Positions 12,091 to 55,337 are shown, counted from the first letter of the stretch. The stretch: 64,000 nt of DNA from Bacteroidia bacterium (GCA_027493955.1 JAOSJT010000001.1:1349131-1413130); one strand, 5' to 3'. Notes: generated from the sequence alone by a model not told the origin. Program-made: numbers and translations.

Positions 12091-12226
12091 ACAGGACTCC
12101 TGCTACGTATTTCGCGCACAGGTCAAGATGGCAAAACGCCTTCCCCCAAGCAAGCACCCGTCAGGTATACGTCATCAAATCCCCACCATACAGGGAGACT
12201 GCAGCAGTATTGTTTGCTTTGATTTG

Positions 12227-12300
12227 TACCCCCGGGGTGACTCGAACACCCGACCTGCGGTTTAGGAAACCGTCGCTCTATCCACCTGAGCTACGGGGGC
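12227..12300 (-). tRNA. tRNA-Arg (anticodon CCT)
   Basis: Reverse complement is GCCCCCGTAGCTCAGGTGGATAGAGCGACGGTTTCCTAAACCGCAGGTCGGGTGTTCGAGTCACCCCGGGGGTA, which folds as a cloverleaf with a T-loop TTCGAGT and an anticodon loop TTCCTAA. Confidence 0.85.
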
Positions 12301-12533
12301 GATTAACACCGAAATGTACTGATTTTCATGATGAATCGCCAATGACAGCGTGATTTCTGAATGGAAGATACTTGAATGGAGATGCTGGTCCGCTCGAAGG
12401 TCAGCCTGCTGATATTTGGGACATGGATCATCCTATCCCCAAATCCGCAATTGACTTTTCCGCAAAAATGATGTACTATGGCTCCACGATATCCATCTTG
12501 CACCTACCACACAACCTCGCGAGGGTCGAAGTT

Positions 12534-14285
12534 ATGAAGAACTTCATCGTCTGCACCTTCCTGCTGCTTGTCCTGACCGCCGTTACGAACGCACAGGACA
12601 TCGAAACAACACTCTCCGGTAACACCACGACACAGGGATTCACCGTCAAAAGCTTCGCGGGCACACCGTTATTCACGGTGCGGGCGGACGGAAAAATCGG
12701 ACTCGGCATTCTCAATCCCGACGCGCTGCTGCACGTGGCGGGACAAGTGAAAATCACCGGCGGGTCTCCCGGCGCGGGAAAGTTGCTCACCTCCGACGCC
12801 AACGGGCTCGCCACTTGGACTATGCTTTCGTCGTTGCCTCCGGACGGTCCTGCGGGCGGGGATCTCACCGGCAGCTACCCCAATCCCACCATCGCCAACA
12901 GCGCGATTACCTCGGCAAAGATCGCCGTCGGGGCAGTGACACTTTCAAAAATCAGCATAGCGGGTGCGACCACCGGCGAAGTGCTCACCTACGACGGTAC
13001 CAAACTCGCGTGGTCTCCGCCGACTTCTACCGGCGTCACGCTCGACCAGGCATACGACATGGGAGGAGCGGGAGCGGGTCGTACAATTACCGCCGATGCT
13101 GGTGCGGTGGTTATTGCCGGTGTGGATGGCTTTCTCGTGACTGCCGGAAGCACCTCGCAAGGTTCGATACCGGCAAGCGGAGCCGGTTCGCGCATGATGT
13201 GGTATCCGAAAAAGCGAGCATTTCGGGCAGGCGAGGTACTTGGAACTCAATGGGATGACGCGAACATCGCTGGCTACTCGATGGCGACGGGATTAAATAC
13301 GACTGCCAGCGGAACGGCGTCAAGCGCGCTCGGGCACAGCACAACCGCCAGCGGTTCGAACTCCACGGCACTGGGATGGCTCACAACCGCTAGCGCACAT
13401 GCGTCCATTGCAATGGGTTATGGCGCGACAGCTAGCGGCACCTACTCCATAGCGACCGGCCAAAACACAACTGCAAGTGGATCCAGCTCCACCGCGATGG
13501 GGGCCGCTTCGATCGCAAGCGGTAGCTACTCCACCGCCATGGGTTCCAACTCCACCGCCAGCGGCAACAGCTCGACCTCGATGGGAAACTACGTCACCGC
13601 GAGCGGCAATTACACTACTGCGATCGGGAGATACGCCAGCACCGGTGGTTACGCGGGTTCCATGGCGATCGGGGATAACAGTACTTCCAGCCTTCTGACG
13701 AACACCGCTGAAAACCAATGGATCGTGCGATTCGCCGGGGGTATTCGTTTCTATACCAACTCTGCAATGACGATGGGTTCCTATATGAGTCCTAACACGA
13801 GCGGGTGGATGTTTATCAGTGACCGGAATAAAAAGGAGAATTTCACAGTGGTAGACGGCGAGGACCTCCTCTCGCGGCTGCGTTCCGTCCCCGTTTCCGA
13901 ATGGAATTACAAAGGCACGGATGCGTCTATCCGCTATATCGGACCCATGGCGCAGGATTTCTGGCAGGCCTTCCATCTCGGCGGAACGGACTCGCTCGGC
14001 ATCAACAGTGTGGCCATCGACGGCGTGAATATGGCTGCAATACAGGCGCTGGAAAAACGGACGGCGGAATTGAACGAGAAGACTGCGGAGCTGCAGCGAA
14101 AAACGGATGAGATTGCCTCACTCAAGGAGAAGGTCGCCACACTTGAAAATGCTCAGGCACAGTACGCTGCTCAGGCCGCCGAATTACGCCGGCTCAAGAG
14201 CGAATTCGACACACTCAGAACTCTTCTCACGGAGAAAACCACTGAGATGAGTGTGAAGCATGCATCGCTCGACGCGGGCAAGTGA
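12534..14285 (+). CDS. Secreted tail-fibre-like protein, paralog 1: conserved N-domain, TASG/STAMG (hep_Hag-like) repeats, C-terminal Peptidase_S74 intramolecular chaperone domain plus coiled coil
   Basis: Signal peptide MKNFIVCTFLLLVLTAVTNAQ. The central region has repeats of the form NTTASGxxSTAMG. The C-terminus reads ISDRNKKENFTVVDGEDLLSRLRSVPVSEWNYKGTD...YIGPMAQDFWQAF, which I match from memory to the chaperone-of-endosialidase consensus (SDxRxKxNI...AQE; wording approximate, not database-confirmed), and is followed by heptad coiled coil. Confidence 0.8.
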   Translation: MKNFIVCTFLLLVLTAVTNAQDIETTLSGNTTTQGFTVKSFAGTPLFTVRADGKIGLGILNPDALLHVAGQVKITGGSPGAGKLLTSDANGLATWTMLSSLPPDGPAGGDLTGSYPNPTIANSAITSAKIAVGAVTLSKISIAGATTGEVLTYDGTKLAWSPPTSTGVTLDQAYDMGGAGAGRTITADAGAVVIAGVDGFLVTAGSTSQGSIPASGAGSRMMWYPKKRAFRAGEVLGTQWDDANIAGYSMATGLNTTASGTASSALGHSTTASGSNSTALGWLTTASAHASIAMGYGATASGTYSIATGQNTTASGSSSTAMGAASIASGSYSTAMGSNSTASGNSSTSMGNYVTASGNYTTAIGRYASTGGYAGSMAIGDNSTSSLLTNTAENQWIVRFAGGIRFYTNSAMTMGSYMSPNTSGWMFISDRNKKENFTVVDGEDLLSRLRSVPVSEWNYKGTDASIRYIGPMAQDFWQAFHLGGTDSLGINSVAIDGVNMAAIQALEKRTAELNEKTAELQRKTDEIASLKEKVATLENAQAQYAAQAAELRRLKSEFDTLRTLLTEKTTEMSVKHASLDAGK

Positions 14286-14617
14286 TAAATGACGCGTGTG
14301 TACGCATCTCCAATGTACCGTCCATGTGCATCGACACATGCAGGCACAGCGTTCACCTGCACCGCAGATATTACCCGAGTCTCCATGGTTCAGAGGTTGT
14401 ATTCCGGCTCTTTCGACACATTCGAGCAAAGCGCATTCAAAACCATCACTCGTCCACGATTCCTTTGGCATGTACCCACGATGGGCCATTCGCTGAATGT
14501 TTGCTTCTGACGTATACTACTTTCTCCTCCGATGTTGACTCTGATTGAAATAGTACGCATCTTTGCAGGAGATTTTCCATTATGCACCTACCACACAACC
14601 TCGCGAGGGTCGAAGTT
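14286..14617 (+). repeat. Conserved ~300-bp non-coding leader upstream of fibre paralog 2 (about 90% identical to 16070-16401)
   Basis: Nucleotide-level conservation, with substitutions and indels spread over all three codon positions. It contains a CATGTG-n6-CACATG palindrome and ends in a shared aggagattttccattATGcacctaccacacaacctcgcgagggtcgaagttATGaa block. Confidence 0.7.
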
Positions 14618-16069
14618 ATGAAAAACTTCATCGTCTGCACCTTCCTGCTGCTTGTCCTGACCGCCGTTACGAACGCGCAGGACATCGAAACGACACTCTC
14701 CGGCAACACCACGACACAGGGATTCACCGTCAAAAGCTTCGCGGGCACACCGCTGTTCACCGTACGGGGGGACGGCAAGATCGGCATCAACATCCTGAAT
14801 CCCACCGCAGCACTGCATGTGGCGGGACAACTTATAATCACTGGCGGCACACCCGGCGCGGGCAAGGTGCTGACCTCCGATGCGAATGGCCTTGCGTCAT
14901 GGACATCTCCTGCTTCAACTGGGGTCACGCTCGACCAGGCGTACGACCAGGGCGGCGCGGGAGCGGGTCGCATAATCACTGCGGACGCGGGTGCCGTGGT
15001 TATTGCAGGGGTGGACGGATTACTCGTGACCGCCGGAAGCACATCACAGGGTTCGATACCGGCAAGTGGAGCCGGAGCACGTATGATGTGGTATCCGAAG
15101 AAGCGGGCGTTCCGGACTGGATACGTGGATGGAGGCCAATGGGATGATGCCAACATTGGAATCAACTCCACCGCGATGGGATACAACACAATGGCCAGCG
15201 GCACCTCCTCCACCGCTGTGGGAGGCGCCACAACCGCCAGCGGCGACCGCTCCACCGCGATGGGAGGCGCCACAACCGCCAGCGGCACGCGCTCCACTGC
15301 GATGGGGAGTGGCACAATCGCGAGCGGCGAATACTCCACCGCGATGGGGTATTCCACAACCGCAAGCGGCGACAACTCCACGGCTTTGGGAAGCTACGTG
15401 AGTACCGGCGGATATCTGGGTGCAATGGCGATGGGAGACAGGAGCACGGCCACGCTTCTCTCGAATACTGCTTCGAACCAATGGGTTGCGCGTTTTGCCG
15501 GAGGTATCCGTTTCTACACCAATCCCACCACGACGACAGGTGCCTACATGAATGCCAGCGCCAGCGGCTGGACGAATGTCAGTGACAAGAATAAAAAGGA
15601 GAATTTCACAGCTATCGACGGAGAAGCCCTTCTTGCACGATTGCGCTCCGTCCCCGTCTCCGAATGGAATTACAAAGGCACGGACGTGTCTATCCGCTAT
15701 ATCGGACCCATGGCGCAGGATTTCTGGCAGGCCTTCCATCTCGGCGGAACGGACTCCCTCGGCATCAACAGTGTAGCCATCGACGGCGTGAATATGGCTG
15801 CAATACAGGCGCTGGAGAAACGGACGGCGGAGATGAACGAGAAGACGGCGGAGCTGCAGCAAAAGACGGCCGAGTTAAAGCAAAAGTCCGATGAGATTGC
15901 ATTGTTGAAAGAAGAGGTCGCAGCGCTTAAAACATCTCAGGCACAGTACGCTGCTCAGGCCGCCGAATTACGCCGGCTCAAGAGCGAATTCGACACACTC
16001 AGAACTCTTCTCACGGAGAAAACCACTGAGATGAGTGTGAAACATGCCTCGCTCGACGCGGGCAAGTGA
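14618..16069 (+). CDS. Secreted tail-fibre-like protein, paralog 2 (shortest; lacks the ~60-aa insert present in paralogs 1 and 3)
   Basis: Same signal peptide, N-domain and C-terminal S74 chaperone plus coiled coil as paralog 1. The central repeat count differs: GGATTASGDRSTAMGGATTASGTRSTAMG. Confidence 0.8.
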   Translation: MKNFIVCTFLLLVLTAVTNAQDIETTLSGNTTTQGFTVKSFAGTPLFTVRGDGKIGINILNPTAALHVAGQLIITGGTPGAGKVLTSDANGLASWTSPASTGVTLDQAYDQGGAGAGRIITADAGAVVIAGVDGLLVTAGSTSQGSIPASGAGARMMWYPKKRAFRTGYVDGGQWDDANIGINSTAMGYNTMASGTSSTAVGGATTASGDRSTAMGGATTASGTRSTAMGSGTIASGEYSTAMGYSTTASGDNSTALGSYVSTGGYLGAMAMGDRSTATLLSNTASNQWVARFAGGIRFYTNPTTTTGAYMNASASGWTNVSDKNKKENFTAIDGEALLARLRSVPVSEWNYKGTDVSIRYIGPMAQDFWQAFHLGGTDSLGINSVAIDGVNMAAIQALEKRTAEMNEKTAELQQKTAELKQKSDEIALLKEEVAALKTSQAQYAAQAAELRRLKSEFDTLRTLLTEKTTEMSVKHASLDAGK

Positions 16070-16401
16070 AAAACGACGCGTCTCTATGAATCTCCAATGT
16101 ACCCTGCATGCGCATCGATACATGCAGGCACAGTGTTCACCTGCACCGCAGACATTACCCGAGTCTCCATGGTTCAGAAATTGTATACCGGCTCTTTCGA
16201 CACATTCGAGCAAAGCTCATTCAAAGCCATCGCTCGTCCACGATTCCATCGGCATGTACGGACGGAGGATCGTTCGCTGAATGTTTCCTTCTGACGTATA
16301 CTACTTTCTCCTCCGATGTTGATTCTGATTGAAATAGTACGCATCTTTGCAGGAGAATTTCCATAATGCACCTACCACACAACCTCGCGAGGGTCGAAGT
16401 T
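16070..16401 (+). repeat. Conserved ~300-bp non-coding leader upstream of fibre paralog 3 (duplicate of 14286-14617)
   Basis: See the 14286-14617 feature. In both copies the antisense and sense small ORFs in the ORF track are conserved only because the DNA is. Confidence 0.7.
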
Positions 16402-18300
16402 ATGAAGCACTTCATCGTCTGCAGCTCTCTGCTGCTCATCTTAACCGCCGTGACGAACGCGCAGGACATCGAAACGACACTCTCCGGCAATACCACGACA
16501 CAGGGATTCACCGTCAAAAGCTTCGCGGGCACACCATTGTTCACAGTGCGGGCGGACGGGAAAATCGGACTCGGCATTCTCAATCCAGACGCGCTGCTGC
16601 ATGTGGCGGGACAAGTGAAAATCACCGGCGGCTCTCCCGGCGCGGGAAAGTTGCTGACCTCCGACGCCAATGGGCTCGCCTCATGGACTATGCTCTCGTC
16701 GCTGCCGCCGGACGGTCCTGCGGGCGGGGACCTGACGGGTAACTACCCGAATCCCACAATCGCAAACAGCGCAATAACCTCCGCAAAGATCGCCACAGGA
16801 GCCGTGACGCTCTCGAAAATCAGCACAACGGGAGCGACGTCGGGTGAAATACTCAGATACGACGGTACGAAGATCGTCTGGGATACGCCCTCCGCAGGTG
16901 GCGTCACGCTCGACCAGGCATACGACATGGGAGGAACGGGAGCGGGTCGTACGATCACCGCCGACGCGGGAGCGGTGGTAATTGCCGGAGTAGACGGCTT
17001 TCTCGCGACTGCCGGAACAAGTTCTCAGGGATCGATACCTGCAAGCGGAGCCGGTTCGCGAATGATGTGGTATCCGAAGAAGCGGGCATTCCGGGCAGGA
17101 ACTGTGAATGGAAACCAATGGGATGATGCGAATATTGGTGTTATCTCCAACGCAATGGGATCCAACATAACCGCCAGTGGGAACTACTCCACCGCGATGG
17201 GATTCGCCTCAACCGCGAGCGGCAGCGCTTCCACCGCGATGGGGAGTAACACAACAGCCAGCGGTGATTATTCCACCGCGATTGGGGCCAGCACAACCGC
17301 TAGCGCCAACACGTCCACCGCGATGGGATACAGCACAATCGCGAGAGGCAGCCAATCCACCGCGATGGGAGGCTTCGCAGACGCGAGCGGATTTATTTCC
17401 ACCGCGATGGGGAATAACACCTACGCGAGCGGTGACTACTCCACCGCGCTAGGCAGGTACACAACCGCCAGCGGCATCTCGTCTACCGCTATGGGGAGCA
17501 ACACTACGGCTAGCGGCACCAACTCCACCGCGATGGGGGATTACACAACCGCCAGCGCGTATGGCTCCACCGCGATGGGCAGAAACACAACCGCCAGCGG
17601 AAACTACTCCACCGCAATGGGATACTACACAACCGCCAGCGGCGAAAGCTCCACAGCTATCGGAAGCTACGTGAGTACCGGCAGTTATCTGGGTGCAATG
17701 GCGATGGGAGACAGGAGCACGACCTCGCTTCTTACGAATACTGCTTCGAACCAATGGGTTGCGCGTTTTGCCGGAGGTATTCGCTTCTACACCAATCCGA
17801 CTATAGCATCGGGTGCCTACATGAATCCCAATGCCAGCGGCTGGACCAATGTCAGCGACCGAAATAAAAAGGAAAATTTCACCGCTATTGATGGAGAAGC
17901 CCTTCTTGCACAGCTGCGCTCCGTCCCCGTCTCCGAATGGAATTACAAAGGCACGGACGCGTCTATCCGCTATATCGGACCCATGGCGCAGGATTTCTGG
18001 CAGGCCTTCCATCTCGGCGGAACGGACTCCCTCGGCATCAACAGTGTAGCCATCGACGGCGTGAATATGGCTGCAATACAGGCGCTGGAAAAACGGACGG
18101 CGGAGATGAGACAAAAGACCGACGAAATCGCCCTCCTGAAAGAAGAGCTTGCGGTATTAAAGACTTCTCTGGAAGTTTTTGAAACCCAGGCCGCGGAAAT
18201 TCGTCAGCTCAAAAATGACCTCACCGTGCTCAAAGCGCTTCTCACCGAAGCGTCCCCTGCCGGGAGCGTGAAACATGCATCGCTCGATTCGGGCAAGTGA
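16402..18300 (+). CDS. Secreted tail-fibre-like protein, paralog 3 (longest; most TASGxxSTAMG repeats; coiled-coil tail diverged)
   Basis: Same overall architecture, with about 14 tandem xxTASGxxSTAMG units. The S74 motif reads VSDRNKKENFTAIDGEALLAQLRSVPVSEWNYKGTD. Confidence 0.8.
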   Translation: MKHFIVCSSLLLILTAVTNAQDIETTLSGNTTTQGFTVKSFAGTPLFTVRADGKIGLGILNPDALLHVAGQVKITGGSPGAGKLLTSDANGLASWTMLSSLPPDGPAGGDLTGNYPNPTIANSAITSAKIATGAVTLSKISTTGATSGEILRYDGTKIVWDTPSAGGVTLDQAYDMGGTGAGRTITADAGAVVIAGVDGFLATAGTSSQGSIPASGAGSRMMWYPKKRAFRAGTVNGNQWDDANIGVISNAMGSNITASGNYSTAMGFASTASGSASTAMGSNTTASGDYSTAIGASTTASANTSTAMGYSTIARGSQSTAMGGFADASGFISTAMGNNTYASGDYSTALGRYTTASGISSTAMGSNTTASGTNSTAMGDYTTASAYGSTAMGRNTTASGNYSTAMGYYTTASGESSTAIGSYVSTGSYLGAMAMGDRSTTSLLTNTASNQWVARFAGGIRFYTNPTIASGAYMNPNASGWTNVSDRNKKENFTAIDGEALLAQLRSVPVSEWNYKGTDASIRYIGPMAQDFWQAFHLGGTDSLGINSVAIDGVNMAAIQALEKRTAEMRQKTDEIALLKEELAVLKTSLEVFETQAAEIRQLKNDLTVLKALLTEASPAGSVKHASLDSGK

Positions 18301-19099: not shown

Positions 19100-19215
19100 G
19101 CGTCGGGGCAGCTTGCTGCTCGTATAACTGATTTTTCTACTGTGAAGGGTGCGGCCGGTCAGCCGCACCCTTTACATTGTATGTCCGTCACCCGGGGAGT
19201 ACGATAATCTGCTTT

Positions 19216-19435: not shown

Positions 19436-19574
19436 GTCTTCATGGCAGAAGATGCCTGATTGAAACGAGAGATGGGCACCGTGCCATCGATCCTTATACA
19501 GTACCCTTAAAGTCCCTCTGCGCCTTTGCCTCTTTGCGACTTTGCGTTAATTTCTTCTCCCTGAGCCGCAATGG
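19436..19574. repeat. Copy 2 of the ~150-bp direct repeat; overlaps and supplies the last ~27 codons and the stop of the carH-like gene
   Basis: Same alignment as copy 1. The downstream arm of the inverted repeat is lost in this copy. Confidence 0.7.
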
Positions 19575-20504
19575 CGCGTCCCGGACATCGAGCAGCGGGC
19601 CGAGGTCGTCGAGATCGCGAATGATGGCCGCGTCCATCGATTCGAGAGAAGCCGCGTACGCCCCCGCCGCACGTCCTCCCACTGCCACGGCAACGCCACC
19701 GGGAAGAAGCGTGGCGAGGCGACGCAAATCGCGGTGCAGCAGAGCATCGTCGGCGGGATAGACGATGCCGAGAATCAACATGCGCGCACTCAATTGACGC
19801 ACGGCGGCCGCGATTTCCTCCGACGGAAGATTGGCGCCGAGATACACGACATTCCATCCACGCATGGCAACCGTTACTGCCGCGATGAGCGCTCCGAGTT
19901 CGTGTACTTGATTCACCGGCGTGCAAACCAGCGCCGAGGGAGCGCTGGGGAAGCGCGGCGCCGCAGCAACGATGGAGCCGAGAAAGGTGCGCACGGCTGC
20001 GGTCGCCATGTGCTCGTGCGCGATGCGCATCGTCCCCTCCTGCCATTGACGCCCGAGTGCTTCAAGAAACGGTACGATGACCTCCCCTATCAACGCCTGC
20101 TGCGGCAGATGAAGCGAGGCCTGCGTCAGCACATCCTCCAAGGCACGAACGTCCAGCGCGCGGACTGCCGCGAGCATATCGCCCTGAAAATCTCTTCCTT
20201 CGGGAGATCCGGTGCTACCCGGATCCGGCACATGCTTCCCGGTGCGTTCTTTCGCGAGAAGCTCTATAAGCGCTTCGTTGCTCAACGCCGCAAGCTCCCC
20301 GATGGAATGCCTCAGCTCGATAAGCTGGCGGAGCAAAATCAAACGCTCGATATCCCTGTCGGAATAGAGACGGCGGTTGCTTTCCGTCCGCTCCGGAGAC
20401 AAAACCTGATGCCTCTTCTCCCACGCACGGATGACATACACAGACACGCCCGACATCTCCGATGCGAGTCTTATGGGGTATTTGTATGTTTGGCTGTCTT
20501 TCAT
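19494..20504 (-). CDS. MerR-family transcriptional regulator with C-terminal cobalamin-binding-like domain (CarH/LitR-like)
   Basis: N-terminal MerR helix-turn-helix: YPIRLASEMSGVSVYVIRAWEKRHQVLSPERTESNRRLYSDRDIERL. The C-terminal region has a Q-V-H-E-L-G segment resembling the B12-binding DxHxxG motif, followed by LILGIV and VGGRAAG segments. Start placed at MKDSQTYKY. Confidence 0.55.
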   Translation of the reverse strand: MKDSQTYKYPIRLASEMSGVSVYVIRAWEKRHQVLSPERTESNRRLYSDRDIERLILLRQLIELRHSIGELAALSNEALIELLAKERTGKHVPDPGSTGSPEGRDFQGDMLAAVRALDVRALEDVLTQASLHLPQQALIGEVIVPFLEALGRQWQEGTMRIAHEHMATAAVRTFLGSIVAAAPRFPSAPSALVCTPVNQVHELGALIAAVTVAMRGWNVVYLGANLPSEEIAAAVRQLSARMLILGIVYPADDALLHRDLRRLATLLPGGVAVAVGGRAAGAYAASLESMDAAIIRDLDDLGPLLDVRDAPLRLREKKLTQSRKEAKAQRDFKGTV

Positions 20505-20682
20505 TTTGTCTAGTATTTGTATCAAACTTATTGATAAAATGTATGGAATGCAAGCATCATTACGCACTATGCAAAAATTTCTGAAATATTTGTCTAACTA
20601 CGGAACCATTATTTCTAGACACAGGTTTACAATACCGTAAGCATTACAGAGCTTTTCACTCAACGATACAAAAGGACCAGAC

Positions 20683-22047
20683 ATGAAACGGACAATGATT
20701 CAGGCGCTTCCTCTCAACATGGCAACGGCATTGCGCATGCCTGCATTTACGCTCCTTCTTCTCACGGCGGCCCTCCTGTCGATGAGCACCACGGGATGCA
20801 GCGAGGATGAAGCGACACCTGCAGCTCCGATGACGAACAACGGTCAGTCATCGATTCGCGTTGTGCACACCTCGCACGATGCTCCCGCCGTGGATGTGTG
20901 GGTCAACGGGAGCAAAGCCATCAGCAATCTCGCCTACGGTGCGAGCTCAGGGTACGCTGTAGTCAACGCGGGTACGGTCAATGTCAAGGTGGTCCCCGCT
21001 GGAGCGACATCTCCGGTAGTTATTGAGGCGAACCTGCCTATCGAACAGAGCAAAAGGTATACGGTGCTGGCAATGAACACGCTCGCCAACATCACTCCGG
21101 TGGTCGCCAACGATGCTGATGCCGGCGCGAAAGCGAAAGTACGCTTCATTCATGCATCTACCGACGCTCCGGCTGTCGATATCAAGTTGAATAACGGTGC
21201 CGGAGCTTCGCTTTTCGCCAACACCGCATTCAAAGGTGTGAGAGATTTTATTGAAGTCGATGGTGGCTCCTACACGCTGGCCGTCACCGCCGCGGGCAAT
21301 TCCAAAGAAGTTGTGATCCTTGACAAGGTAACTCTGGAAAACGGCAAGATGTACTCGATCGTAGCACATGGCACGCTTGACGCAAGCGACAACTATCCGT
21401 TTGGAGTTCGCGCTTTCATTGACAATGGCGATGGCAAGCTCTTCGCGGATCTCTCCCCCGCGACGGCGCTTCTCAAGGTCATCCACGCCTCTCCCGACGC
21501 CCCGGCTGTCGACCTCTACCTCGATGGTGTCTTGTCCGGTTCCAATCTGACATTTCCGAATAATACCGGCTATTTGAGCATCCCCGCCGGAACGCGTGCT
21601 ATAAAGGTGAATGTGGCCGGAACCATGACCACTGCTATCGGCGCCGACCTCCTGTTCGATGCGGGTAAAAACTACTCCGTCTTCGCGGTCAACCGCGTCG
21701 CCAACATCGAAGCGCTGGTGCTGCAAGATGATCTCACGATGCCTGCTGCCGGTCAAGCGCATGTACGCTTCGTGCATCTCTCGTCCGATGCCCCTGCGGT
21801 AGATATTACCACCAAGGACGGAACAGTCGTCTTCCCCAACGTGTCCTTCAAGAAATTCACGAGCTTTCTCCCGCTCAATGCAGGATCCTATGATCTGCAG
21901 GTTCGTCTGGCCGGGACCTCAACGGTTGTCCTCGATCTGAACGGCATCCGTCTCGACAACGGTAAAATCTACACCGTCTTCGCCCGCGGCTTCGTATCCG
22001 GCTCCGGCGGCACGGCTCTCAACGCGCAGATTATCGTCAACAAGTAA
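20683..22047 (+). CDS. DUF4397 domain lipoprotein (4 repeats)
   Basis: Lipobox LLSMSTTGCS. Four repeats of VRxxHASxDAPAVDV...G, which matches DUF4397 as I remember it. Confidence 0.75.
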   Translation: MKRTMIQALPLNMATALRMPAFTLLLLTAALLSMSTTGCSEDEATPAAPMTNNGQSSIRVVHTSHDAPAVDVWVNGSKAISNLAYGASSGYAVVNAGTVNVKVVPAGATSPVVIEANLPIEQSKRYTVLAMNTLANITPVVANDADAGAKAKVRFIHASTDAPAVDIKLNNGAGASLFANTAFKGVRDFIEVDGGSYTLAVTAAGNSKEVVILDKVTLENGKMYSIVAHGTLDASDNYPFGVRAFIDNGDGKLFADLSPATALLKVIHASPDAPAVDLYLDGVLSGSNLTFPNNTGYLSIPAGTRAIKVNVAGTMTTAIGADLLFDAGKNYSVFAVNRVANIEALVLQDDLTMPAAGQAHVRFVHLSSDAPAVDITTKDGTVVFPNVSFKKFTSFLPLNAGSYDLQVRLAGTSTVVLDLNGIRLDNGKIYTVFARGFVSGSGGTALNAQIIVNK

Positions 22048-22811: not shown

Positions 22812-24941
22812 ATGCTGAACACACGGATACTGACCATTGCAGCCCTGACGATGGCATTATTCCCTTTGACTTCGGTCAGCCAGAATTTCTGGTCACAGAC
22901 CGACGGTCCTCACGGCGCTTCCGTCAAGTCGCTGGCAATAGCTAACGACGGCTCGCTTCTGGCGGGAACGGAAGGAGGAGGTCTCTTCCGCTCACCGGAC
23001 GACGGAGAACACTGGGAACGAATATTCGTACAGGTTCTCAACGGCATCACGCCGAAGTACAGCGAAGTTCCTGCAATCGCCCTAAACAGCGCCGGTCACA
23101 TTTATATCGGCACCTGGGGTGGTGGTATTTACAGTTCGAGAAACAACGGGAACACGTGGAGCGGCGGGTTGCCTTCGTTCACCGGAGTACGTTCGCTGGT
23201 CTTCAATGCAAGTGGAGACCTGCTTGCGGGATTCGACGGAGGAAGCTACGCATCCGGGGTATATCGGACTACGGACAACGGCTTCAGCTGGACAAACGTC
23301 GGCTTGAAAAGCTATAGACCGAACGCTTTCGCAAAAGGCGAGGACGATACACTGTACGCGTCCTCGAGTTCCGGATGCCACCTATCAACCGATTGCGGTG
23401 CTTCGTGGTCTCCTATGGGCTATCTCATACAGAACAGGGACTGCAACTCTATAGCACTTCTCGAGGACGGCACGATTCTCACTGGCACGGACCGCGGTAT
23501 TTTCAAAACGACAAACAACGGCGTTGAGTGGACGCAGGCGAACAATAATCTGCTCGACACCTTTGTGTTGTCAATCGCCGTCGGGCAGAACGGGACGGTC
23601 TTTGCAGGGACGTCGAAAGGGAGTGTCTATGCTTCGTCCAACCGGGGCGGAAACTGGCAGCGCATCAATGAGGGGTCTATCTGGTCTGCGGTAAACGTAC
23701 TCCTGGCCGATCCAGCACGCGGGCTGTTTGCCGGGACGGCAGGCGGAGGCATTTTTCACACGTCTGACGCCGGGGAGAATTGGATGCGGAAGGACCGCCG
23801 CCTGCCCGCCACGCTCGTACGCTCCATGACGGTCGCAACGGATGGACGCATTTACGCCGCTACGGCGGGCGCTGGCGTGCATCACTCTTCCGATAACGGC
23901 GAATCCTGGTATTCAACGGCGCTGGACAGTATAGACGCGCGGACGATTTTCGCATATTCCGGCGGCCATTTGTTTGCCGGTGCGGACAGTGGCGTCGTCT
24001 ATCGCTCTTCGGATGAAGGACAGACCTGGCAACGGATGCTGACAGGCGGCGTCAATGCTGTCCGCTGCTTCGGCATACATTCCACAGGCACGCTTTTCGC
24101 AGGAACGTTCGGGGAGGGTGTTTTCCGCTCCACCGACGGAGGTGACAACTGGGCGCCATCGAACGCCGGATTGACGAATATGTATATCTCAGCCACCGCC
24201 ACGGCTCGTAACGGCAATATAATCGTCGGGAGTTCCTGGGGACTGTTTATTTCGACAGACGCAGGCCTTAATTGGAGGCTCAATTCCACGCTGTCCACCG
24301 TCGGCATATCCTCGATATCCGTGACCTCGATGGGCGACCTGATAGCAGTCGCCTCGGCATCTCTTTACAAATCAACGAATCATGGGGTCAACTGGACCAG
24401 GATGACGACGGCTTCGACTTCAGGGATTCAGGCGTTGGCAACCGGCCCCGGTGGTCGGATATGGTTCAGCTCCGGACCAAGGTCCTTCAGCAACATTCCC
24501 GTAGTGTATGAATCGACCGACGACGGGGTTACATGGACCGACGTTGATCATTCAACGTCCATTCTCTCCCTCGTCTTGACTGCCAACGGCTACCTTCTTG
24601 CCGGCACAGACGGCAGCGGAGTGCTCCGTAGCGCAAAAGTGGTGCTTCCGACATCTTCCGATAAGCCCCGACCGCCAGCAGAGTGTCGACTGGAATCCAA
24701 CTATCCGAACCCATTCAGTAGCCGAACCACGATCCGCTTCACACTTTCCCACCGGCAATCCGTCCGCCTGACAGTGCACAATCTCGCCGGTGAGCAGGTG
24801 GCGCAGCTCCTGTCGGGCCAATACGATGCCGGCACTCATTGTGTGGAATGGGCTGTGCCGGAATACCCCGACGGTGCGTATTTCTGTCGGCTGATTGCGG
24901 ACGGAGCCGTGCAATCAAGCATGCTCATGATCGTTCGGTGA
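22812..24941 (+). CDS. BNR/Asp-box repeat (sialidase/sortilin-like beta-propeller) protein with T9SS C-terminal sorting domain
   Basis: More than 12 S-x-D-x-G-x-x-W Asp-box motifs (SPDDGEHW, SRNNGNTW, TTDNGFSW, STDCGASW and others). C-terminus reads YPNPFSSRTTIRFTLSHRQSVRLTVHNLAGEQVAQL...AYFCRLIADGAVQSSMLMIV. Confidence 0.8.
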   Translation: MLNTRILTIAALTMALFPLTSVSQNFWSQTDGPHGASVKSLAIANDGSLLAGTEGGGLFRSPDDGEHWERIFVQVLNGITPKYSEVPAIALNSAGHIYIGTWGGGIYSSRNNGNTWSGGLPSFTGVRSLVFNASGDLLAGFDGGSYASGVYRTTDNGFSWTNVGLKSYRPNAFAKGEDDTLYASSSSGCHLSTDCGASWSPMGYLIQNRDCNSIALLEDGTILTGTDRGIFKTTNNGVEWTQANNNLLDTFVLSIAVGQNGTVFAGTSKGSVYASSNRGGNWQRINEGSIWSAVNVLLADPARGLFAGTAGGGIFHTSDAGENWMRKDRRLPATLVRSMTVATDGRIYAATAGAGVHHSSDNGESWYSTALDSIDARTIFAYSGGHLFAGADSGVVYRSSDEGQTWQRMLTGGVNAVRCFGIHSTGTLFAGTFGEGVFRSTDGGDNWAPSNAGLTNMYISATATARNGNIIVGSSWGLFISTDAGLNWRLNSTLSTVGISSISVTSMGDLIAVASASLYKSTNHGVNWTRMTTASTSGIQALATGPGGRIWFSSGPRSFSNIPVVYESTDDGVTWTDVDHSTSILSLVLTANGYLLAGTDGSGVLRSAKVVLPTSSDKPRPPAECRLESNYPNPFSSRTTIRFTLSHRQSVRLTVHNLAGEQVAQLLSGQYDAGTHCVEWAVPEYPDGAYFCRLIADGAVQSSMLMIVR

Positions 24942-25786: not shown

Positions 25787-26112
25787 GAATCGCAGAGGTA
25801 TTCATGCACGAACAATACGCGGGGAGACTCATCGAAGATGAGAACGGGTACACGTTCACCTATGATCCAACCTACCTCGCCTCCGGAGGAAAACCAGCAA
25901 TCAGCCTCACCCTCCCTCTTCAAAAAGAATCATTCGAAAACCCGGTCCTCTTTCCGTTTTTCGACGGCCTGATTCCCGAGGGATGGCTGCTGGACGTCGC
26001 CCGCGAAAATTGGAAGCTGGATCCGCGCGACCGCATGGGATTACTTATGACGTGTTGTCGCGACTGCATCGGCGCCGTCAGTGTGCGCGCCACCGGAGAA
26101 GCAGGATTATGA
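25783..26112 (+). CDS. hipS: HipS-like protein (HipA N-terminal subdomain as a stand-alone protein)
   Basis: 109 aa. The HipA_N-like couple motif reads VFMHEQYAGRLIEDENGYTFTYDPTYL...LPLQKESFENPVLFPFFDGLIPEGW. ATGA overlaps with both neighbouring genes. Confidence 0.75.
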   Translation: MRIAEVFMHEQYAGRLIEDENGYTFTYDPTYLASGGKPAISLTLPLQKESFENPVLFPFFDGLIPEGWLLDVARENWKLDPRDRMGLLMTCCRDCIGAVSVRATGEAGL

Positions 26113-27074
26113 ACTCTGTGAAACGCTGTCTGTTCTGCTATGCATTGCTCGATGATGAGTCCGGAGATTTTCACCCGGCATGCAGTCGAAAAATGTTCGG
26201 CACTCCTCAACCGCCCAAGTTACCGTACTCCGAGTCGGACATGCTGCGTCTGGCGCTGCAGGTAGTCCGCTCGCGGATAGCGGTAACCGGTGTGCAGGCA
26301 AAATTGTCGCTCGAACTGGAAAAGGCCGTGAAAAACGTACACGACAGGCGGTTTACCATCGTCGGAATGTGGGGACGTTATACTCTCAAACCTCCGACCC
26401 CGCAGTATCCGTACCTGCCGGAAGTGGAAGATTGCACCATGCATTTGGCATCGCTGGCAGGTTTACGCACCGTACCGCACTCACTGATTCGCATGCAATC
26501 AGGAAAGCTCGCGTACATCACCGCGAGAATTGATCGCACAAAGGAGGGGCTGCTGCACATGGAGGACATGTGCCAGATTACGGGTCGGCTCACAGAACAC
26601 AAGTATCACGGCTCACACGAGCAAATTGCGAGAGCCCTCATCCGGTACTCGGCGAATCCCTTGTTCGACGTCGGCATATTCTACGAACAGGTCCTGTTTT
26701 CATTCCTTACGGGGAATGCGGACATGCATCTGAAGAATTTCTCGCTGATCGACAGTCCCGGTATCGGCTATGCGCTCGCCCCGGCGTACGACATGGTCGC
26801 CACCGCGCTGGTCAATCCGAAGGATACGGAGGAACTCGCGCTGACACTTGACGGCAAGAAGCGGAGCATTTCCCGGCGCAGCTTCGAGAATGCGTGTTAT
26901 CTCGCCGGGCTGAATGAAAAATCCGTGGGTGCCATGTTCCGCCGCTTTGAGAAGGCGATCCCGCGCTGGATGGAATTCATAGGAATCAGCTTTTTGCCGG
27001 AAGCCGTGAAGGAAGAATTCAGGGCGATCATAAAGCAACGCGCCGGGAGAGTGGGGCTCTGTACCGGTGAATAG
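26109..27074 (+). CDS. hipT: HipT-like Ser/Thr kinase toxin (HipA C-terminal kinase core) with N-terminal CxxC...HxxC zinc-ribbon-like motif
   Basis: Gly-rich loop IAVTGVQAKLS and catalytic motif GNADMHLKNFSL (D-x-H-x-KN). The start MNSVKRCLFCYALLD at 26109 was verified. Confidence 0.85.
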   Translation: MNSVKRCLFCYALLDDESGDFHPACSRKMFGTPQPPKLPYSESDMLRLALQVVRSRIAVTGVQAKLSLELEKAVKNVHDRRFTIVGMWGRYTLKPPTPQYPYLPEVEDCTMHLASLAGLRTVPHSLIRMQSGKLAYITARIDRTKEGLLHMEDMCQITGRLTEHKYHGSHEQIARALIRYSANPLFDVGIFYEQVLFSFLTGNADMHLKNFSLIDSPGIGYALAPAYDMVATALVNPKDTEELALTLDGKKRSISRRSFENACYLAGLNEKSVGAMFRRFEKAIPRWMEFIGISFLPEAVKEEFRAIIKQRAGRVGLCTGE

Positions 27075-27326: not shown

Positions 27327-28901
27327 TCACCAGACGAGCATACTGCGCATGGACTGCACGCCACCCGCTCGCAGAACGACGGTGTATACGCCTGATGGAA
27401 TCTGCCGCACGCGGAAAGGGACGCTGTACATCCCGCACTCCTGCAGGCCTTCCACAAGCGTCGCGACGCAGCGCCCCATCGCATCGTACACACGCAGCGA
27501 CACCTCGCCTGCAGCGGGGAGTGTGTAATTGATCGTCGTCGCTTCGCGGAAGGGATTCGGATAATTCTGCTCCAATCGCGGACTCGCCGGCGTTGTCTCA
27601 AGCTGCGACCCATGATCTCCCATTCCGGTGGTGGCCGATGCGTCGCGTACCAGACGCACGTAATTATATATGCGAATCGCGTCCCCCTGCGGACCGCGGC
27701 CCTGCGGATAGTCCGCGGGATCGCCCGCTTTGGGATCGGAGCGCTGACAACCGGCGCCGTGCACGTCTATCCACCTGCCGTTCATATAGCCCATTCCCCT
27801 GCCGAAGGCCACATACGCTGCGGCGTTTCCGCTGCCGTTGAATGCCGCGTGCGTGGTCGAAGACCAATAACAGGGGTAATCCTGTTCGCCCGCTTCATTC
27901 GTGATGCTCGTGCAATCGAATACCGGATCGATGGCCGGAGAATTGCTGCTGGCCGGCGCGCGTGTGTAATCAAGTATGCTCTGAAGCTCCTTGACATTGG
28001 GCAGGCGCCAGTCGTTGTGGCCCAGATACGTTTCGTTGTTTTTCTGCGCCGCCCAGGCGAGGGCGTCCTGCCAATTCAGTTTGACGCCGCCGTCGGATTG
28101 CGACCACATCAGTCCTGTTGCACGGTCGGTGATAGTGCCATCGCCATTGTCGAAGAAGTCATTGTTGCCGTAGCTCGTGTTGCCCCGCACGCAGAGCACG
28201 AAATATGTCGCTGTCCGCCCGCCCGGTCCGGTGGATTTCGGGTAACCTTTGATGCGTCCATCGGCGAAATTGACACCGAACATGGTCTCGCCGCCGCCCA
28301 TAGTCGTGGATGTGTACAGCGTGCTGCTCGCGTACTGCGCATCGATAATGCGTTCGCCCGCCGCGGGATCTCCGTAAGCGAATCTGAGATACTCCTGATC
28401 GAGGAAGGACGTCAATTGCCGCGTGTCGGTACCGTTGTAGCCGGAAGGATCGGTGCCGCGAAAATCCATGAGGGAATACAGCTCCTTGATCGTCGGCAGT
28501 CTCCAGTCACTGTAGCCGCCGTGCACCGCAGAATTGAGCGCCACGGGATGAGCCGTGGCCTGCGCGAAGGTGAGCTTATCTGCGGATGAGACAATCCCGT
28601 CGCCGTTGGTGTCCGCAGCCCGCTGCCAGGTCAAACCGCTGACGTGGTCGAACACCGTCAAGCCATCGGTGCTCACGGTATAACTCGGCTGATGTCCCGC
28701 GTACTGTGCGTCCTGCCCGTGGAAGGGTTGCCCGATTTGCGGCGTCGCTATGACCGCGTTGTTGTTGTAGCTCAACTGCTGATGCGTATCAACCACGGAA
28801 TACGGCAATTGCTGCGCATGCGTCATCCATGCTGAAAGAGGACAAAGCACCAGGAAGAGTGTATACGGCAATCGTTTTGTTGAACGATGTGAAGCTTTCA
28901 T
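27327..28901 (-). CDS. DUF1566 (Lcl C-terminal domain) repeat protein with T9SS C-terminal sorting domain
   Basis: Two DUF1566 signatures (YSDWRLPTIKELYSL and HNDWRLPNVKELQSIL). C-terminal tail reads YPNPFREATTINYTLPAAGEVSLRVYDAMGRCVATL...VYTVVLRAGGVQSMRSMLV. Confidence 0.8.
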   Translation of the reverse strand: MKASHRSTKRLPYTLFLVLCPLSAWMTHAQQLPYSVVDTHQQLSYNNNAVIATPQIGQPFHGQDAQYAGHQPSYTVSTDGLTVFDHVSGLTWQRAADTNGDGIVSSADKLTFAQATAHPVALNSAVHGGYSDWRLPTIKELYSLMDFRGTDPSGYNGTDTRQLTSFLDQEYLRFAYGDPAAGERIIDAQYASSTLYTSTTMGGGETMFGVNFADGRIKGYPKSTGPGGRTATYFVLCVRGNTSYGNNDFFDNGDGTITDRATGLMWSQSDGGVKLNWQDALAWAAQKNNETYLGHNDWRLPNVKELQSILDYTRAPASSNSPAIDPVFDCTSITNEAGEQDYPCYWSSTTHAAFNGSGNAAAYVAFGRGMGYMNGRWIDVHGAGCQRSDPKAGDPADYPQGRGPQGDAIRIYNYVRLVRDASATTGMGDHGSQLETTPASPRLEQNYPNPFREATTINYTLPAAGEVSLRVYDAMGRCVATLVEGLQECGMYSVPFRVRQIPSGVYTVVLRAGGVQSMRSMLVW

Positions 28902-29163
28902 GCTGTGTTGCCTCAAAAACCGCTATGTGGGACGCAGTTGCATTTTCTCCGCTCTGCGCCAAAGATGTGTTTGACAGGAAAAGGGTGAGATTCGTTTAAT
29001 GCCCGCAGTGGAGAGCACGAGCGGCCGCTGATCATACGGCGGACGTCTCCACTGAGAGCGCTCTGCTCCGAACGGCAGTACGATAAAATCGCGGATTCTG
29101 TGCGACGCGCATCTTGTTGCATGCTACGTCAAAATACTCCGCCACACGGCGTGGAAACCTGCC

Positions 29164-30849
29164 TTACTTCAACAGCATCATGGATTTGCTGATCGTGGCA
29201 CTTCCGCTGCGCAGTCGGCTGAGAAGTATGCCACTCATGATTCCATCCGCATTAAAAGGCAACTCGTAACTACCCGCTTCCAGCACACCATCGATCAGCG
29301 TTTGCACTACCCTGCCCATCACATCGGATACAGTCAACACAACATGCTCCCTTTGCGGAATGGAAAAACGCATCGTCGTGACGGGATTGAAGGGGTTGGG
29401 GTAGTTCTGATAAAGCGTCACCTCGGAAGGATACCCGGCTTCGCCCTTGACGCCGGTCGGATACAATTCTATCGTTCCGCCAGGTGTGAGATCCCTCCCC
29501 GCAACACCGGCGTAGTCGGGCGCATAGCGATTTATTTTGAACACCGTGTTCCGCATCGGTCTGTCTCCCTGCGTCATCGGACCGGTGATACTCACGGGAT
29601 TGATATACCTCCAGACGATCTCGCCGGCGGCGGTGACTTCAAAAAACACGCCGTCGGGTCCGTCGCAAATCAGGGTGTTCCCGTTCTCCAGGCGTGTCGC
29701 ACCGGAAACGTTGAGAGCGAAGAACGAGGCCGGCGGTGACGCCTTGTACGTCCACGCCGTTCGGTCGGGACCGAAGGCGGAATCTGTTGCGCGCTCGTAG
29801 GAACCATCGGGGGCCAGAGGCGGAACGATCTCCTCGATGGATGAATACGCGCCTCCGGGCCGTCTCGGACCATTGTTGAAAATGAGGATGTTTCCGGCGC
29901 CGGGATATCCCGCATCTATCCAGCGCGCATCGTGTTGCGCGAAAAGCTTCTGATCGGTCGCATTCCCCATTTTGTAGGCCTGCGGATTGCCCCAACGATA
30001 GAGCAGGTCCCCCCCCTTTCCACGCTTTCCACCCGTGTGTCCCGCCGCTTCCGCTTTCGTGGTACTGTGATCGATAACCCATACCTCGTGTGTCGCATGC
30101 ACACTGAGAATGATCTCATCGCGTAACGCATTGTATCGCACGGAATTGATATGCAGCCAGTCGTCCTTCATATCGCCGAAATTGATATCGAAGAGTTCGG
30201 GATGCTGAGATACGATACCGTAATTCGCCTTTGTCGAATCATAATCCTGCACGAGGTGATCCCATATATCCCACTCCCAGACGATGACACCGCCATTGCT
30301 GCCCGTCGGTTGTACTTCTATGACTTTTTCCGACCAGACCTCCGTGTACGTGGCGCCGCTCAGATTTCTCCCCGCCGCGGCGGCTTCCGACAGCGATTTC
30401 TTCATCCAGGCAATCAGCAGGATATTCCCGTTGGGCAACACTTCCACGTCGTGATGCGTGCAGTAACTGTCGCTGAAATAGTCGAAACTCCATGTGAGTG
30501 TGCCGCTCCAGTCGAAGCGCTCGACGCGGCCCGCGGCGCCACCCGCAGTAAACGGATGGCCCGACTCGGCCGCTGCCGCCCGCAGCAGTGAACCGTCTGG
30601 CAGCAACATGGCGGCCTGTCCCGGAAAATAAGCGCTTTTCCATGAGCGCAGCAATTTCCCGTCGTTGTCGATCAGATAGGTCGTGTTGGATCTGACAGGA
30701 GCGAACAGCGTATATCCGCGAAACGCCTTCGCTGTGTCATGCAGCAGCATCCCGACAGTATTGGTCTGACCGTGCAGACTCGCGGCGCAGTACAGCAACA
30801 ACAGAAAGGTGATTCGTGTGAAAGATGTCGTGCGCAAGAGGATCTCCAT
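29164..30849 (-). CDS. Arylsulfotransferase (ASST) family protein with T9SS C-terminal sorting domain
   Basis: ASST-like beta-propeller motifs (HHDVEVLPNGNILLIAW, HINSVRYNALRDEIILSVHATHEVWVIDH) and a C-terminal YPNPFNPVTTMRFSIPQREHVVLTVSDVMGRVVQTL tail. Confidence 0.75.
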   Translation of the reverse strand: MEILLRTTSFTRITFLLLLYCAASLHGQTNTVGMLLHDTAKAFRGYTLFAPVRSNTTYLIDNDGKLLRSWKSAYFPGQAAMLLPDGSLLRAAAAESGHPFTAGGAAGRVERFDWSGTLTWSFDYFSDSYCTHHDVEVLPNGNILLIAWMKKSLSEAAAAGRNLSGATYTEVWSEKVIEVQPTGSNGGVIVWEWDIWDHLVQDYDSTKANYGIVSQHPELFDINFGDMKDDWLHINSVRYNALRDEIILSVHATHEVWVIDHSTTKAEAAGHTGGKRGKGGDLLYRWGNPQAYKMGNATDQKLFAQHDARWIDAGYPGAGNILIFNNGPRRPGGAYSSIEEIVPPLAPDGSYERATDSAFGPDRTAWTYKASPPASFFALNVSGATRLENGNTLICDGPDGVFFEVTAAGEIVWRYINPVSITGPMTQGDRPMRNTVFKINRYAPDYAGVAGRDLTPGGTIELYPTGVKGEAGYPSEVTLYQNYPNPFNPVTTMRFSIPQREHVVLTVSDVMGRVVQTLIDGVLEAGSYELPFNADGIMSGILLSRLRSGSATISKSMMLLK

Positions 30850-52925: not shown

Positions 52926-53102
52926 GGTGTCGTCCGTTCCTGTCGCGTGTATGAATGACGGATACCCGTTCGACTGCAAGTTAGCACCCTGTGGCGGATC
53001 GCGGTAGTCGTACGACAAGGATTTGACATTTTCATGACAAACAGCACAGCCGCAAATCCGATTTTCGTAACAGTCACCCATCACACTACACAGGAGGTTA
53101 TC

Positions 53103-55069: not shown

Positions 55070-55337
55070 GTGGCCGGGATTGCATATTGCCTGTGTCAGT
55101 ATTTACGAGCTTATACTCATATTTTACAGCTCACATCCGCAACGCCGGAGTATGAAGCGCAATTCTCCCTGCCCGCTCAGCGTGTGGAGCCATCCCCTGC
55201 CGCTGCAGGCCCTGCAGGAGGCTGAATCGTGGATGTACGACAACACATAACGGATTGATGACATTTTTCTGACAATTCGGAGGCGTGCTTTACCGAATTT
55301 CATAGTGGTTTTGAAACCTCACAGCAAGGAGAATCAC

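Follow-up and report, generated by a model that had tools for sequence, protein, structure and literature searches.

The 64,000-nucleotide stretch of a Bacteroidia bacterium genome analysed here (GCA_027493955.1, JAOSJT010000001.1:1349131-1413130; "the window" below) carries, adjoining a tRNA-Arg(CCT) gene, an array of three co-oriented genes for secreted, tail-fibre-like proteins (A, B and C) and, behind the third of them, a partner gene whose product ends in a sorting domain of the type IX secretion system (T9SS) (Table 1). The sizes of the three open reading frames (ORFs), counted from the starts MKNF/MKHF, are exactly the 583, 483 and 632 aa given by an earlier reading of this DNA made without database searches (the sequence-only reading), and gene C is a public record (P0001, 632 aa, 100% identity, 'MAG: tail fiber domain-containing protein [Bacteroidia bacterium]', MAG being a metagenome-assembled genome). 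No more fibre paralogs were found in the window by tblastn. A leader of ca. 37 nt directly before the ATG is identical in A, B and C, while farther upstream the region of A is unrelated to those of B and C. The palindrome within this shared leader (CCTCGCGAGG) is perfect; it may act as a regulatory hairpin or be bound by a protein.

Table 1 Features of the fibre locus and further ORFs of the window that match a T9SS sorting-domain model (positions counted from the first nucleotide of the window)
Feature	Position	Strand	Description and basis
tRNA-Arg(CCT)	12226..12300	-	conserved left landmark of the locus; ARAGORN
Leader of gene A with palindrome	12497..12533	+	alignment of the three upstream regions
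Leaders identical to that of gene A	14581-14617 (before B), 16365-16401 (before C)	+	same alignment
Fibre gene A, 583 aa	12534..14285	+	signal peptide 1-21, N-domain and 61-aa module, YadA-like head, 155-aa S74 chaperone and coiled coil
A-B spacer, 332 nt	14286..14617	+	duplicated unit, 83-95% identical to the B-C spacer
Fibre gene B, 483 aa	14618..16069	+	no 61-aa module, ~5 head repeats, 162-aa predicted C-terminal fragment with two extra heptads
B-C spacer, 332 nt	16070..16401	+	duplicated unit
Fibre gene C, 632 aa	16402..18300	+	61-aa module, ~11 head repeats, 148-aa predicted C-terminal fragment
Partner gene, 261 aa	18314..19099	+	begins 14 nt past the stop of gene C; T9SS type A sorting domain
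Terminator-like hairpin, 15-bp stem	19141..19176	+	strongest of the region; also scored as inverted repeat I4
Other ORF matching the sorting-domain model	22812-24941		own hidden Markov model
Other ORF matching the sorting-domain model	27327-28916		own hidden Markov model
Other ORF matching the sorting-domain model	29164-30849		own hidden Markov model
Other ORF matching the sorting-domain model	53034-54998		own hidden Markov model
Other ORF matching the sorting-domain model	55305-57236		own hidden Markov model
Other ORF matching the sorting-domain model	63236-63892		own hidden Markov model

Each fibre protein begins with MK, a 14-residue hydrophobic core (FIVCTFLLLVLTAV) and a cut between TNA and QD, i.e., by sequence a type I signal peptide (a helix at residues 2-18 in the structural model), and cleavage before Gln matches the pattern known for signal peptidase I substrates of Bacteroidota. 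A three-way alignment places an N-terminal domain common to A, B and C behind it, followed in A and C, and not in B, by the 61-aa module. A conserved block that ends in WDDANIG then precedes a variable count of 14-residue TASGxxSTAMG repeats, which Tandem Repeats Finder resolves as 42-nt units (5.2 copies in B, 11.4 in C), and the proteins close with a C-terminal block of 178-192 aa, whose S74 core is 95-100% identical in DNA among the three genes and whose coiled-coil part in B is built of 21-nt units. The alignment agrees with the sequence-only reading in all of these respects, both in what the three genes share (signal peptide, N-domain, C-terminal block) and in what differs among them (head-repeat number, and a module of ca. 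60 aa present or absent).

The domain assignments made at first sight, an adhesin-like head and a phage-type chaperone, were borne out by the profile searches that had been named as their check, as both profiles match A, B and C well above the Pfam gathering cut-offs: YadA_head (PF05658) with 71.5, 71.5 and 118.6 bits (cut-off 25; E = 5.9e-20, 6.3e-20 and 1e-34), and Peptidase_S74 (PF13884) with 37.0, 36.3 and 37.4 bits (cut-off 22), profile positions 1-53 of 58 being aligned. Fold comparisons point the same way. In the AlphaFold2 model of B the predicted local distance difference test (pLDDT) reaches 90-98 in the head, 60-80 in the S74 part and < 60 in the N-terminal domain, and Foldseek matched this model to the YadA-like heads of BoaA (3S6L, template modelling (TM) score 0.66), CbpF, EibD, AtaA, BpaC, UspA1 and YadA. 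Searches of the PDB with a single sequence or with a full-length profile returned autotransporter heads only (the family profile matched BpaC at E = 5.5e-47, and also the heads of YadA, EibD, UspA1, AtaA and CbpF), and the S74 relation surfaced there only with a profile limited to the C-terminal block.

The strength of these head matches raises the possibility that the fibres are trimeric autotransporter adhesins (type Vc) with a divergent, unrecognised anchor, and they are indeed like YadA, BpaC, BoaA, EibD, UspA1, AtaA and CbpF in having a head of 14-residue YadA-like repeats. However, neither YadA_anchor nor the T9SS domain Por_Secre_tail was found in A, B or C at E <= 0.1 (Pfam, NCBIfam), the C-terminus of B is hydrophilic and modelled as a single long helix (residues 385-471) devoid of beta-strands, and the stretch between head and helix is occupied by the S74 domain. 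Unlike trimeric autotransporters, the fibres lack both a beta-barrel anchor and a stalk joining it to the head, their trimerisation is presumably driven by S74, and their host belongs to Bacteroidota and possesses T9SS. We give an autotransporter of this kind hardly any credence.

The C-terminal block bears the features of a self-cleaving chaperone. The first residue of the S74 match is the Ser of SD(R/K)NKKENF, and a Lys follows at +5 in all three proteins (S429/K434 in A, S322/K327 in B, S485/K490 in C). The dyad of the endosialidase endoNF is Ser911/Lys916, i.e., it has the same spacing. All of the 30 homologues that were aligned have Lys at +5 from the nucleophile, and the nucleophile itself is Ser in A, B, C and most homologues and Cys in about a third. 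Among the proteins and loci with Cys at this place (e.g., WTNYCDRNKKENF) are P0002, P0004, P0005, P0007, P0009, P0020, P0040, P0091 and P0112 as well as L018, L019 and L023, and such homologues may have a Cys-Lys variant of the self-cleaving dyad. The profile of the block also matches the ICA domain of MyRF, an animal transcription factor (7DC3, E = 0.004), with Ser and Lys of the fibres aligned to what we take to be the catalytic positions of MyRF. Foldseek likewise paired the model of B with 7DC3 (probability 1.00, target TM 0.55-0.58, root-mean-square deviation 3.9-5.4 Å), in a part of the model where pLDDT is 60-80, and gave a weak match to the T5 tail fibre with its chaperone (4UW8).

By analogy, cleavage is predicted between I428 and S429 in A, V321 and S322 in B, and V484 and S485 in C, which would leave mature fibres of ca. 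407, 300 and 463 aa. Because the heptad coiled coil is aligned with the helix of the MyRF ICA domain, we take it for the helical portion of the chaperone region that would be cut off, and not for a stalk of the mature fibre, and it would therefore depart with the chaperone on cleavage. The sequence-only reading had noticed this coiled coil after S74, which is indeed present, and had missed its place in the cleavable region. The fibres are like K1F endoNF, the L-shaped tail fibre pb1 of T5 and the MyRF ICA domain in that PF13884 scores above its cut-off, Ser or Cys is combined with Lys at +5, the domain stands at the C-terminal end of a fibre built of repeats and a helix follows. They are unlike these phage and MyRF proteins in that the fibre is a cellular, Sec-exported and chromosomally encoded protein, in that cleavage is predicted here from sequence, and in that the helix behind the domain is much longer (ca. 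85 aa) and varies by whole heptads.

Given that S74 domains are typical of phage tail fibres and spikes, the array could also be a set of tail fibres of a prophage, a tailocin or a contractile injection system, serving a particle encoded elsewhere in the genome. Fibres with S74 are reported on the extracellular contractile injection systems of Bacteroidota such as Microscilla marina (PMC12923769), A, B and C have weak matches to the PHROGs tail-fibre families phrog_1980 and phrog_6921, and a tRNA gene, the same one that has an integrase beside it in the related locus L009, adjoins the array. Still, the ca. 40 ORFs scanned against Pfam or PHROGs across the 64 kb yielded no capsid, terminase, sheath, tube, baseplate, integrase or recombinase, just as the sequence-only reading had it for phage structural genes and recombinases, and A, B and C have Sec signal peptides, which would be needless for particles assembled in the cytoplasm. 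Phage collections provide partial matches only: in GenBank phages these are no better than E = 1e-4, and in IMG/VR contigs the head or the S74 block is matched at 30-49% identity, two loci alone covering both. The locus is moreover syntenic in related genomes and its flanks are of housekeeping type, the tRNA-Arg(CCT) lying upstream of a fibre gene also in the metagenome-derived contigs L001, L003, L006 and L009. Owing to the signal peptides, the lack of phage genes among the scanned ORFs, the tRNA-Arg synteny and the merely partial phage matches, a cellular, chromosomal origin of the fibre genes is supported, and we regard tail fibres of a particle encoded elsewhere as very improbable.

The tRNA-Arg neighbourhood looks like an insertion hotspot. 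In L009 a tyrosine integrase gene (998-2209) and the fibre gene lie on opposite sides of the tRNA, the integrase being on the usual insertion side, and in L001 and L006 additional genes separate the fibre gene from the tRNA. We also considered that the array might itself sit inside a tRNA-borne genomic island, a candidate that was ruled out by the location of the L009 integrase on the opposite side of the tRNA.

The three copies are mosaics of one another. A and C share 95-97% DNA identity at 12682-12860, where B has 73%; B and C share 85-93% at the positions matching 15357-15657, where A has 65-77%; and A and B are 100% identical at 14173-14285, where C has 68%. The counts of site patterns are heterogeneous among segments (chi2 = 153.7, 10 degrees of freedom, p = 6e-28) and the patterns form only 176 runs, against a permutation mean of 290 and a minimum of 254 (5,000 permutations). 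As the site patterns are both heterogeneous and clustered in runs, the data support recombination or gene conversion among A, B and C. Comparison with related genomes, which the sequence-only reading had suggested, revealed polymorphism in both copy number and repeat number. The tRNA-Arg locus has one fibre gene in L001 (syntenic with the window), two in L003 and three in the window, and relatives vary in the number of head repeats. The 61-aa module is missing in P0007 and P0008 and lengthened to AVTxxKIADGAV repeats in P0003 to P0005, and the number of extra coiled-coil heptads rises from zero in C to one in A, two in B, three in P0003 and four in P0007. One homologue (P0006; L010, 8001-10005) ends in EDGGTER repeats followed by a 60-aa ORF, an apparent frameshift within the 21-nt heptad repeats that may be an assembly error or real slippage. 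The earlier idea of a family diversifying by repeat expansion and gene conversion is thus upheld by the mosaic blocks, the run test and the repeat counts, and diversification by duplication, conversion and in-frame slippage is supported at the level of sequence. None of the outcomes that the sequence-only reading had named as speaking against it (missing profile matches, equal repeat numbers in all strains, full phage structural modules close by) was observed.

Antigenic or phase variation was also named as a possibility by the sequence-only reading, and a programmed form of it can be envisaged in which A and B donate cassettes to an expression site at C or single copies are switched on and off. 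The mosaic identity does speak of repeated exchange between copies, repeat numbers differ among copies and strains, and the partner gene stands behind C only. Nonetheless, inter-copy recombination alone does not define a phase- or antigenic-variation locus, and the expected machinery was not seen: the promoter regions of A, B and C are not flanked by inverted repeats, the window ORFs scanned yielded no invertase, recombinase or reverse transcriptase, and no long simple-sequence, homopolymer or short-repeat tract was seen on reading the three upstream regions. A, B and C are all intact ORFs, each with a start codon, a signal peptide and its own conserved leader, and units of 21 and 42 nt preserve the frame. 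The suggestion is not supported by this evidence, and programmed switching appears improbable to us.

The array has a further constant element in the gene that follows it. Behind its signal peptide (cut between AFA and Q), the partner protein consists of a segment of ca. 50 aa in which two Cys are conserved, an Fn3/Ig-like domain and, at the C-terminus, a T9SS sorting domain of type A that exceeds the cut-offs of both PF18962 (35.2 bits, cut-off 27) and TIGR04183 (34.2 bits, cut-off 23). A fold search with its model gave generic Ig/Fn3 matches and no functional clue, and its family is small (29 database matches). The statement of the sequence-only reading that no T9SS tail is present consequently holds for A, B and C and not for the very next gene, and in raising as open how the fibres cross the outer membrane that reading had missed a conserved, T9SS-tailed partner that bears on the question. 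A simple terminator scan found no terminator-like hairpin in the A-B spacer, its only strong site sitting 3' of the partner gene. A sigma-70 promoter scan gave 3 sites versus 3.2 expected in shuffled sequence, and the Bacteroidetes -7 motif TAnnTTTG was not found upstream of A, B and C.

The fibres belong to a very large family, which made it possible to follow the neighbouring genes widely. A protein search recovered 6,342 clusters at E <= 1e-5 among 8,000 candidates scored, PF05658 and PF13884 being present together in nearly all of the 120 matches listed, and a scan of one genome per species gave at least 566 matching stretches, the best 80 of which (species representatives) were used for neighbour analyses. 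These 80 loci come from Bacteroidota (Ignavibacteria, Melioribacter, Rhodothermales, Dyadobacter, Chitinophaga, Hymenobacter, Pedobacter), Gemmatimonadota (mainly Longimicrobium), Acidobacteriota (mainly Vicinamibacterales), Delongbacteria, Marinimicrobia and Rudaea; 28 of them have two or more fibre copies and some have four. The architecture is the same as in records named 'tail fiber domain-containing protein' by NCBI and 'Head domain of trimeric autotransporter adhesin/Chaperone of endosialidase' by JGI, both from MAGs and isolates of Bacteroidota, and the rarity that the sequence-only reading implied for it does not hold, since more than 6,300 clusters share it and NCBI already annotates it automatically. 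A, B and C are ordinary members of this very large, annotated and uncharacterised family; what the window contributes beyond the annotated records is a mosaic array of three copies and the link to the partner, and no difference in kind. Literature searches returned no functional study of the cellular fibre family and none on a T9SS link.

All members of the partner family with available context (in L001, L003, L006, L009, L010 and L012) lie 3' of a fibre gene. The distance is 14 nt in L001, L003, L006, L009 and L012 and ca. 150 nt in L010, where the 3' end of the fibre gene is apparently frameshifted, and ORF analysis places partners ca. 4 nt downstream in L014 and L015. Because a partner paralog (P0125) is on the same 5.24-Mb contig as P0001, L012 is probably a second locus of the window's genome. 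To extend the comparison we built our own hidden Markov models of the fibre C-terminal block, the partner and the sorting domain and searched them in all ORFs of the 80 loci, counting as adjacent any pair on the same strand within 300 nt and taking the expectation from uniform placement (binomial). ORFs with both the partner middle domain and the sorting domain occur in the Ignavibacteria L014 and L015, in L018, L019 and L030, in the Rhodothermales L025, the Marinimicrobia L090 and six Dyadobacter, and in L038, L044 and L052, and every one of them adjoins a fibre gene, bar a second one in L019 (ca. 2 kb downstream). When all sorting-domain ORFs are considered, 27/41 adjoin a fibre gene versus 2.1 expected (p ~ 1e-25 over the 80 loci, kinship uncorrected). 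Such adjacency is found in 23 of the 36 Bacteroidota loci, in none of the 22 of Gemmatimonadota and in none of the 14 of Acidobacteriota. Culturable species with a sorting-domain neighbour beside the fibre gene include Dyadobacter fermentans (L077) and Chitinophaga jiangningensis (L085).

Fusions provide a second line of evidence. In L069 (Parafilimonas, 3-1808) a single ORF comprises the fibre, S74, the coiled coil and a T9SS sorting domain, and the order S74, coiled coil, sorting domain recurs in five more database proteins (P0167, P0172, P0174 and P0176 among them); two shorter database proteins bear both the S74 and the sorting Pfam domains. A conserved AMSQCCNSFSS motif lies between the coiled coil and the type A sorting domain in the fusions of L069, P0167, P0172, P0174 and P0176, and the small proteins P0159 and P0169 correspond to the C-terminal part of the fusions alone. 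A second type of neighbour, a small T9SS-tailed protein of ca. 160-215 aa with a (Q)GFQQPE motif, adjoins the fibre genes in L013, L022, L024, L061, L078 and L085. The inspected fibres that are accompanied by the 261-aa partner have a C-terminal tail, [HQ]A[SA]L-x3-[KR], that is present in no other inspected lineage, a co-occurrence that is confounded by common ancestry. Two fibres, one of a Rhodothermales MAG (L025, 9782-11086) and one a Dyadobacter paralog (L091, 7081-8334), have a hydrophobic helix and basic residues after the coiled coil, and judging from their residues these C-termini may form a membrane-anchored handle with a MyRF-like topology.

The partner resembles T9SS cargo in its bona fide type A sorting domain, and rare fibre relatives carry such a domain behind the S74 handle, unlike A, B and C. 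T9SS-assisted surface display of the fibres is therewith plausible, and we propose, with a probability of roughly 60%, that A, B and C are Sec-exported, self-cleaving fibres displayed at the cell surface by T9SS with the aid of the partner. The three proteins, paralogs within a large family of Bacteroidota, other bacteria of the Fibrobacteres-Chlorobi-Bacteroidetes (FCB) group and Acidobacteriota, would form homotrimers. After removal of the putative type I signal peptide before Gln, the C-terminal ca. 150-160 aa (S74 and coiled coil) would nucleate the trimer in the periplasm and template the folding of the YadA-like head, as homology to endosialidases and MyRF suggests, and the chaperone would then remove itself by autoproteolysis at the Ser/Lys dyad to yield the mature fibres. 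At the level of sequence it is seen that the array arose by tandem duplication of a unit of gene and spacer of ca. 1.8-2.2 kb, with recombination or gene conversion maintaining the mosaic and slippage in the 42-nt head repeats, the repeat-like N-terminal module and the 21-nt heptads varying length and surface. The presumably co-transcribed, T9SS-tailed partner probably helps the fibres to reach the surface or to stay there, to judge from the gene linkage and the rare fusions, most likely by binding the cleavable C-terminal handle, and the likely function is adhesion or some other kind of binding.

Several points weigh against this proposal. A, B and C themselves are devoid of a sorting domain in Pfam and NCBIfam, and we know of no precedent for, or description of, T9SS export of a cargo that rides on a separate tailed partner. 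The partner follows gene C alone, so that A and B would have to share it, and cleavage as fast as that of endosialidases would lose a handle-bound partner or a fused sorting domain before export. As no sorting-domain ORF was found near the fibre genes of Gemmatimonadota and Acidobacteriota, where the family also thrives, T9SS cannot be a general requirement. The adjacency itself has its weaknesses: several of the adjacent cases come from Dyadobacter alone, the 80 loci are not phylogenetically independent, and genes of T9SS cargo are frequent, with seven ORFs in the window matching our sorting-domain model, four of them above the Pfam cut-off (among the six ORFs listed beside the partner in Table 1, Por_Secre_tail exceeds it in 27327-28916 and 53034-54998 only). 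Finally, the N-terminal domain is poorly modelled, which leaves the anchoring end of the fibre unplaced in the model, and for all members of the family we infer trimerisation, cleavage and surface location.

Some of these points would fit better with fibres that stay in the periplasm or the lumen of vesicles and have no dedicated route across the outer membrane, the T9SS-tailed neighbour being merely a co-regulated surface protein. No known signal for targeting to the outer membrane is present in the fibres, fibre genes abound at loci of Acidobacteriota and Gemmatimonadota without a nearby T9SS-tail ORF, and the precursors of the L025 and L091 fibres would be held in the inner membrane by their terminal transmembrane helix, as MyRF is. 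Vesicle proteomes contained a protein of Tannerella forsythia that is alike by name ('tail fiber domain-containing protein'; PMC10682907), a finding that would agree with a cargo of the lumen. On the other hand, the enrichment of adjacent sorting-domain ORFs and the existence of fusions between the S74 handle and a T9SS sorting domain are not what such a confinement predicts, and fast diversification of a YadA-type head by repeats and conversion is expected of an exposed binding surface. We consider retention inside the envelope or in vesicles doubtful, although it deserves some weight, and retain display at the surface with the aid of T9SS as the preferred explanation.

A bolder version of surface display, which we put forward tentatively, is that YadA-head fibres of Bacteroidota constitute an unrecognised class of T9SS-dependent surface appendages, in which S74 and the coiled coil serve as a disposable handle, the export signal is supplied in cis (fusions) or in trans (a partner on the tail), and self-cleavage frees the trimer after export. 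If true, this would be the first T9SS cargo whose tailed carrier is a separate protein, and the way in which MyRF trimerises, is cleaved and is released would have its parallel in bacteria.

The fibres unite a head of a known adhesin class with the folding and self-cleavage device of phage tail spikes and of an animal transcription factor, and thousands of genomes of Bacteroidota, Gemmatimonadota and Acidobacteriota encode them, often several each. If they are surface adhesins, they represent a large unexplored layer of surface diversity in bacteria of soil, water and the gut, and if the link to T9SS is real, it would extend the rules by which T9SS cargo is recognised. How such genes diversify is seen clearly, on a small scale, in the window, where tandem duplication and gene conversion are joined by in-frame slippage of repeats. 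In our view the T9SS link drawn from statistics and fusions is the most useful addition, as it makes the question of how the fibres cross the outer membrane testable.

Left of the array the window encodes a prolyl-tRNA synthetase, an esterase, an NmrA-like protein, a protein with a TonB C-terminal domain, an AAA_14/DUF4143 ATPase and a MaoC dehydratase, followed by the tRNA-Arg(CCT). On the right come the T9SS-tailed partner, a MerR/B12-binding regulator, a DUF4397 protein, more T9SS cargo, HipA, metabolic genes and a two-component system. The six other ORFs that match our sorting-domain model are a BNR/Sortilin-like protein, an Lcl_C protein, an arylsulfotransferase-like protein, two 5'-nucleotidases and one unnamed protein. 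The region at 36-38 kb attracted attention by its high GC and high AT skew, a composition similar to that of the array, and was ruled out as a further candidate since it is a DEAD-box helicase gene. A HipA-like kinase gene is located at 25983-27074 (HipA_C, E = 4e-40). The regulator (19494-20567, minus strand) has a CarH-like domain set and the DUF4397 protein (20683-22047, plus strand) has four repeats, and the same pair is found 3' of the partner in the syntenic contig L001.

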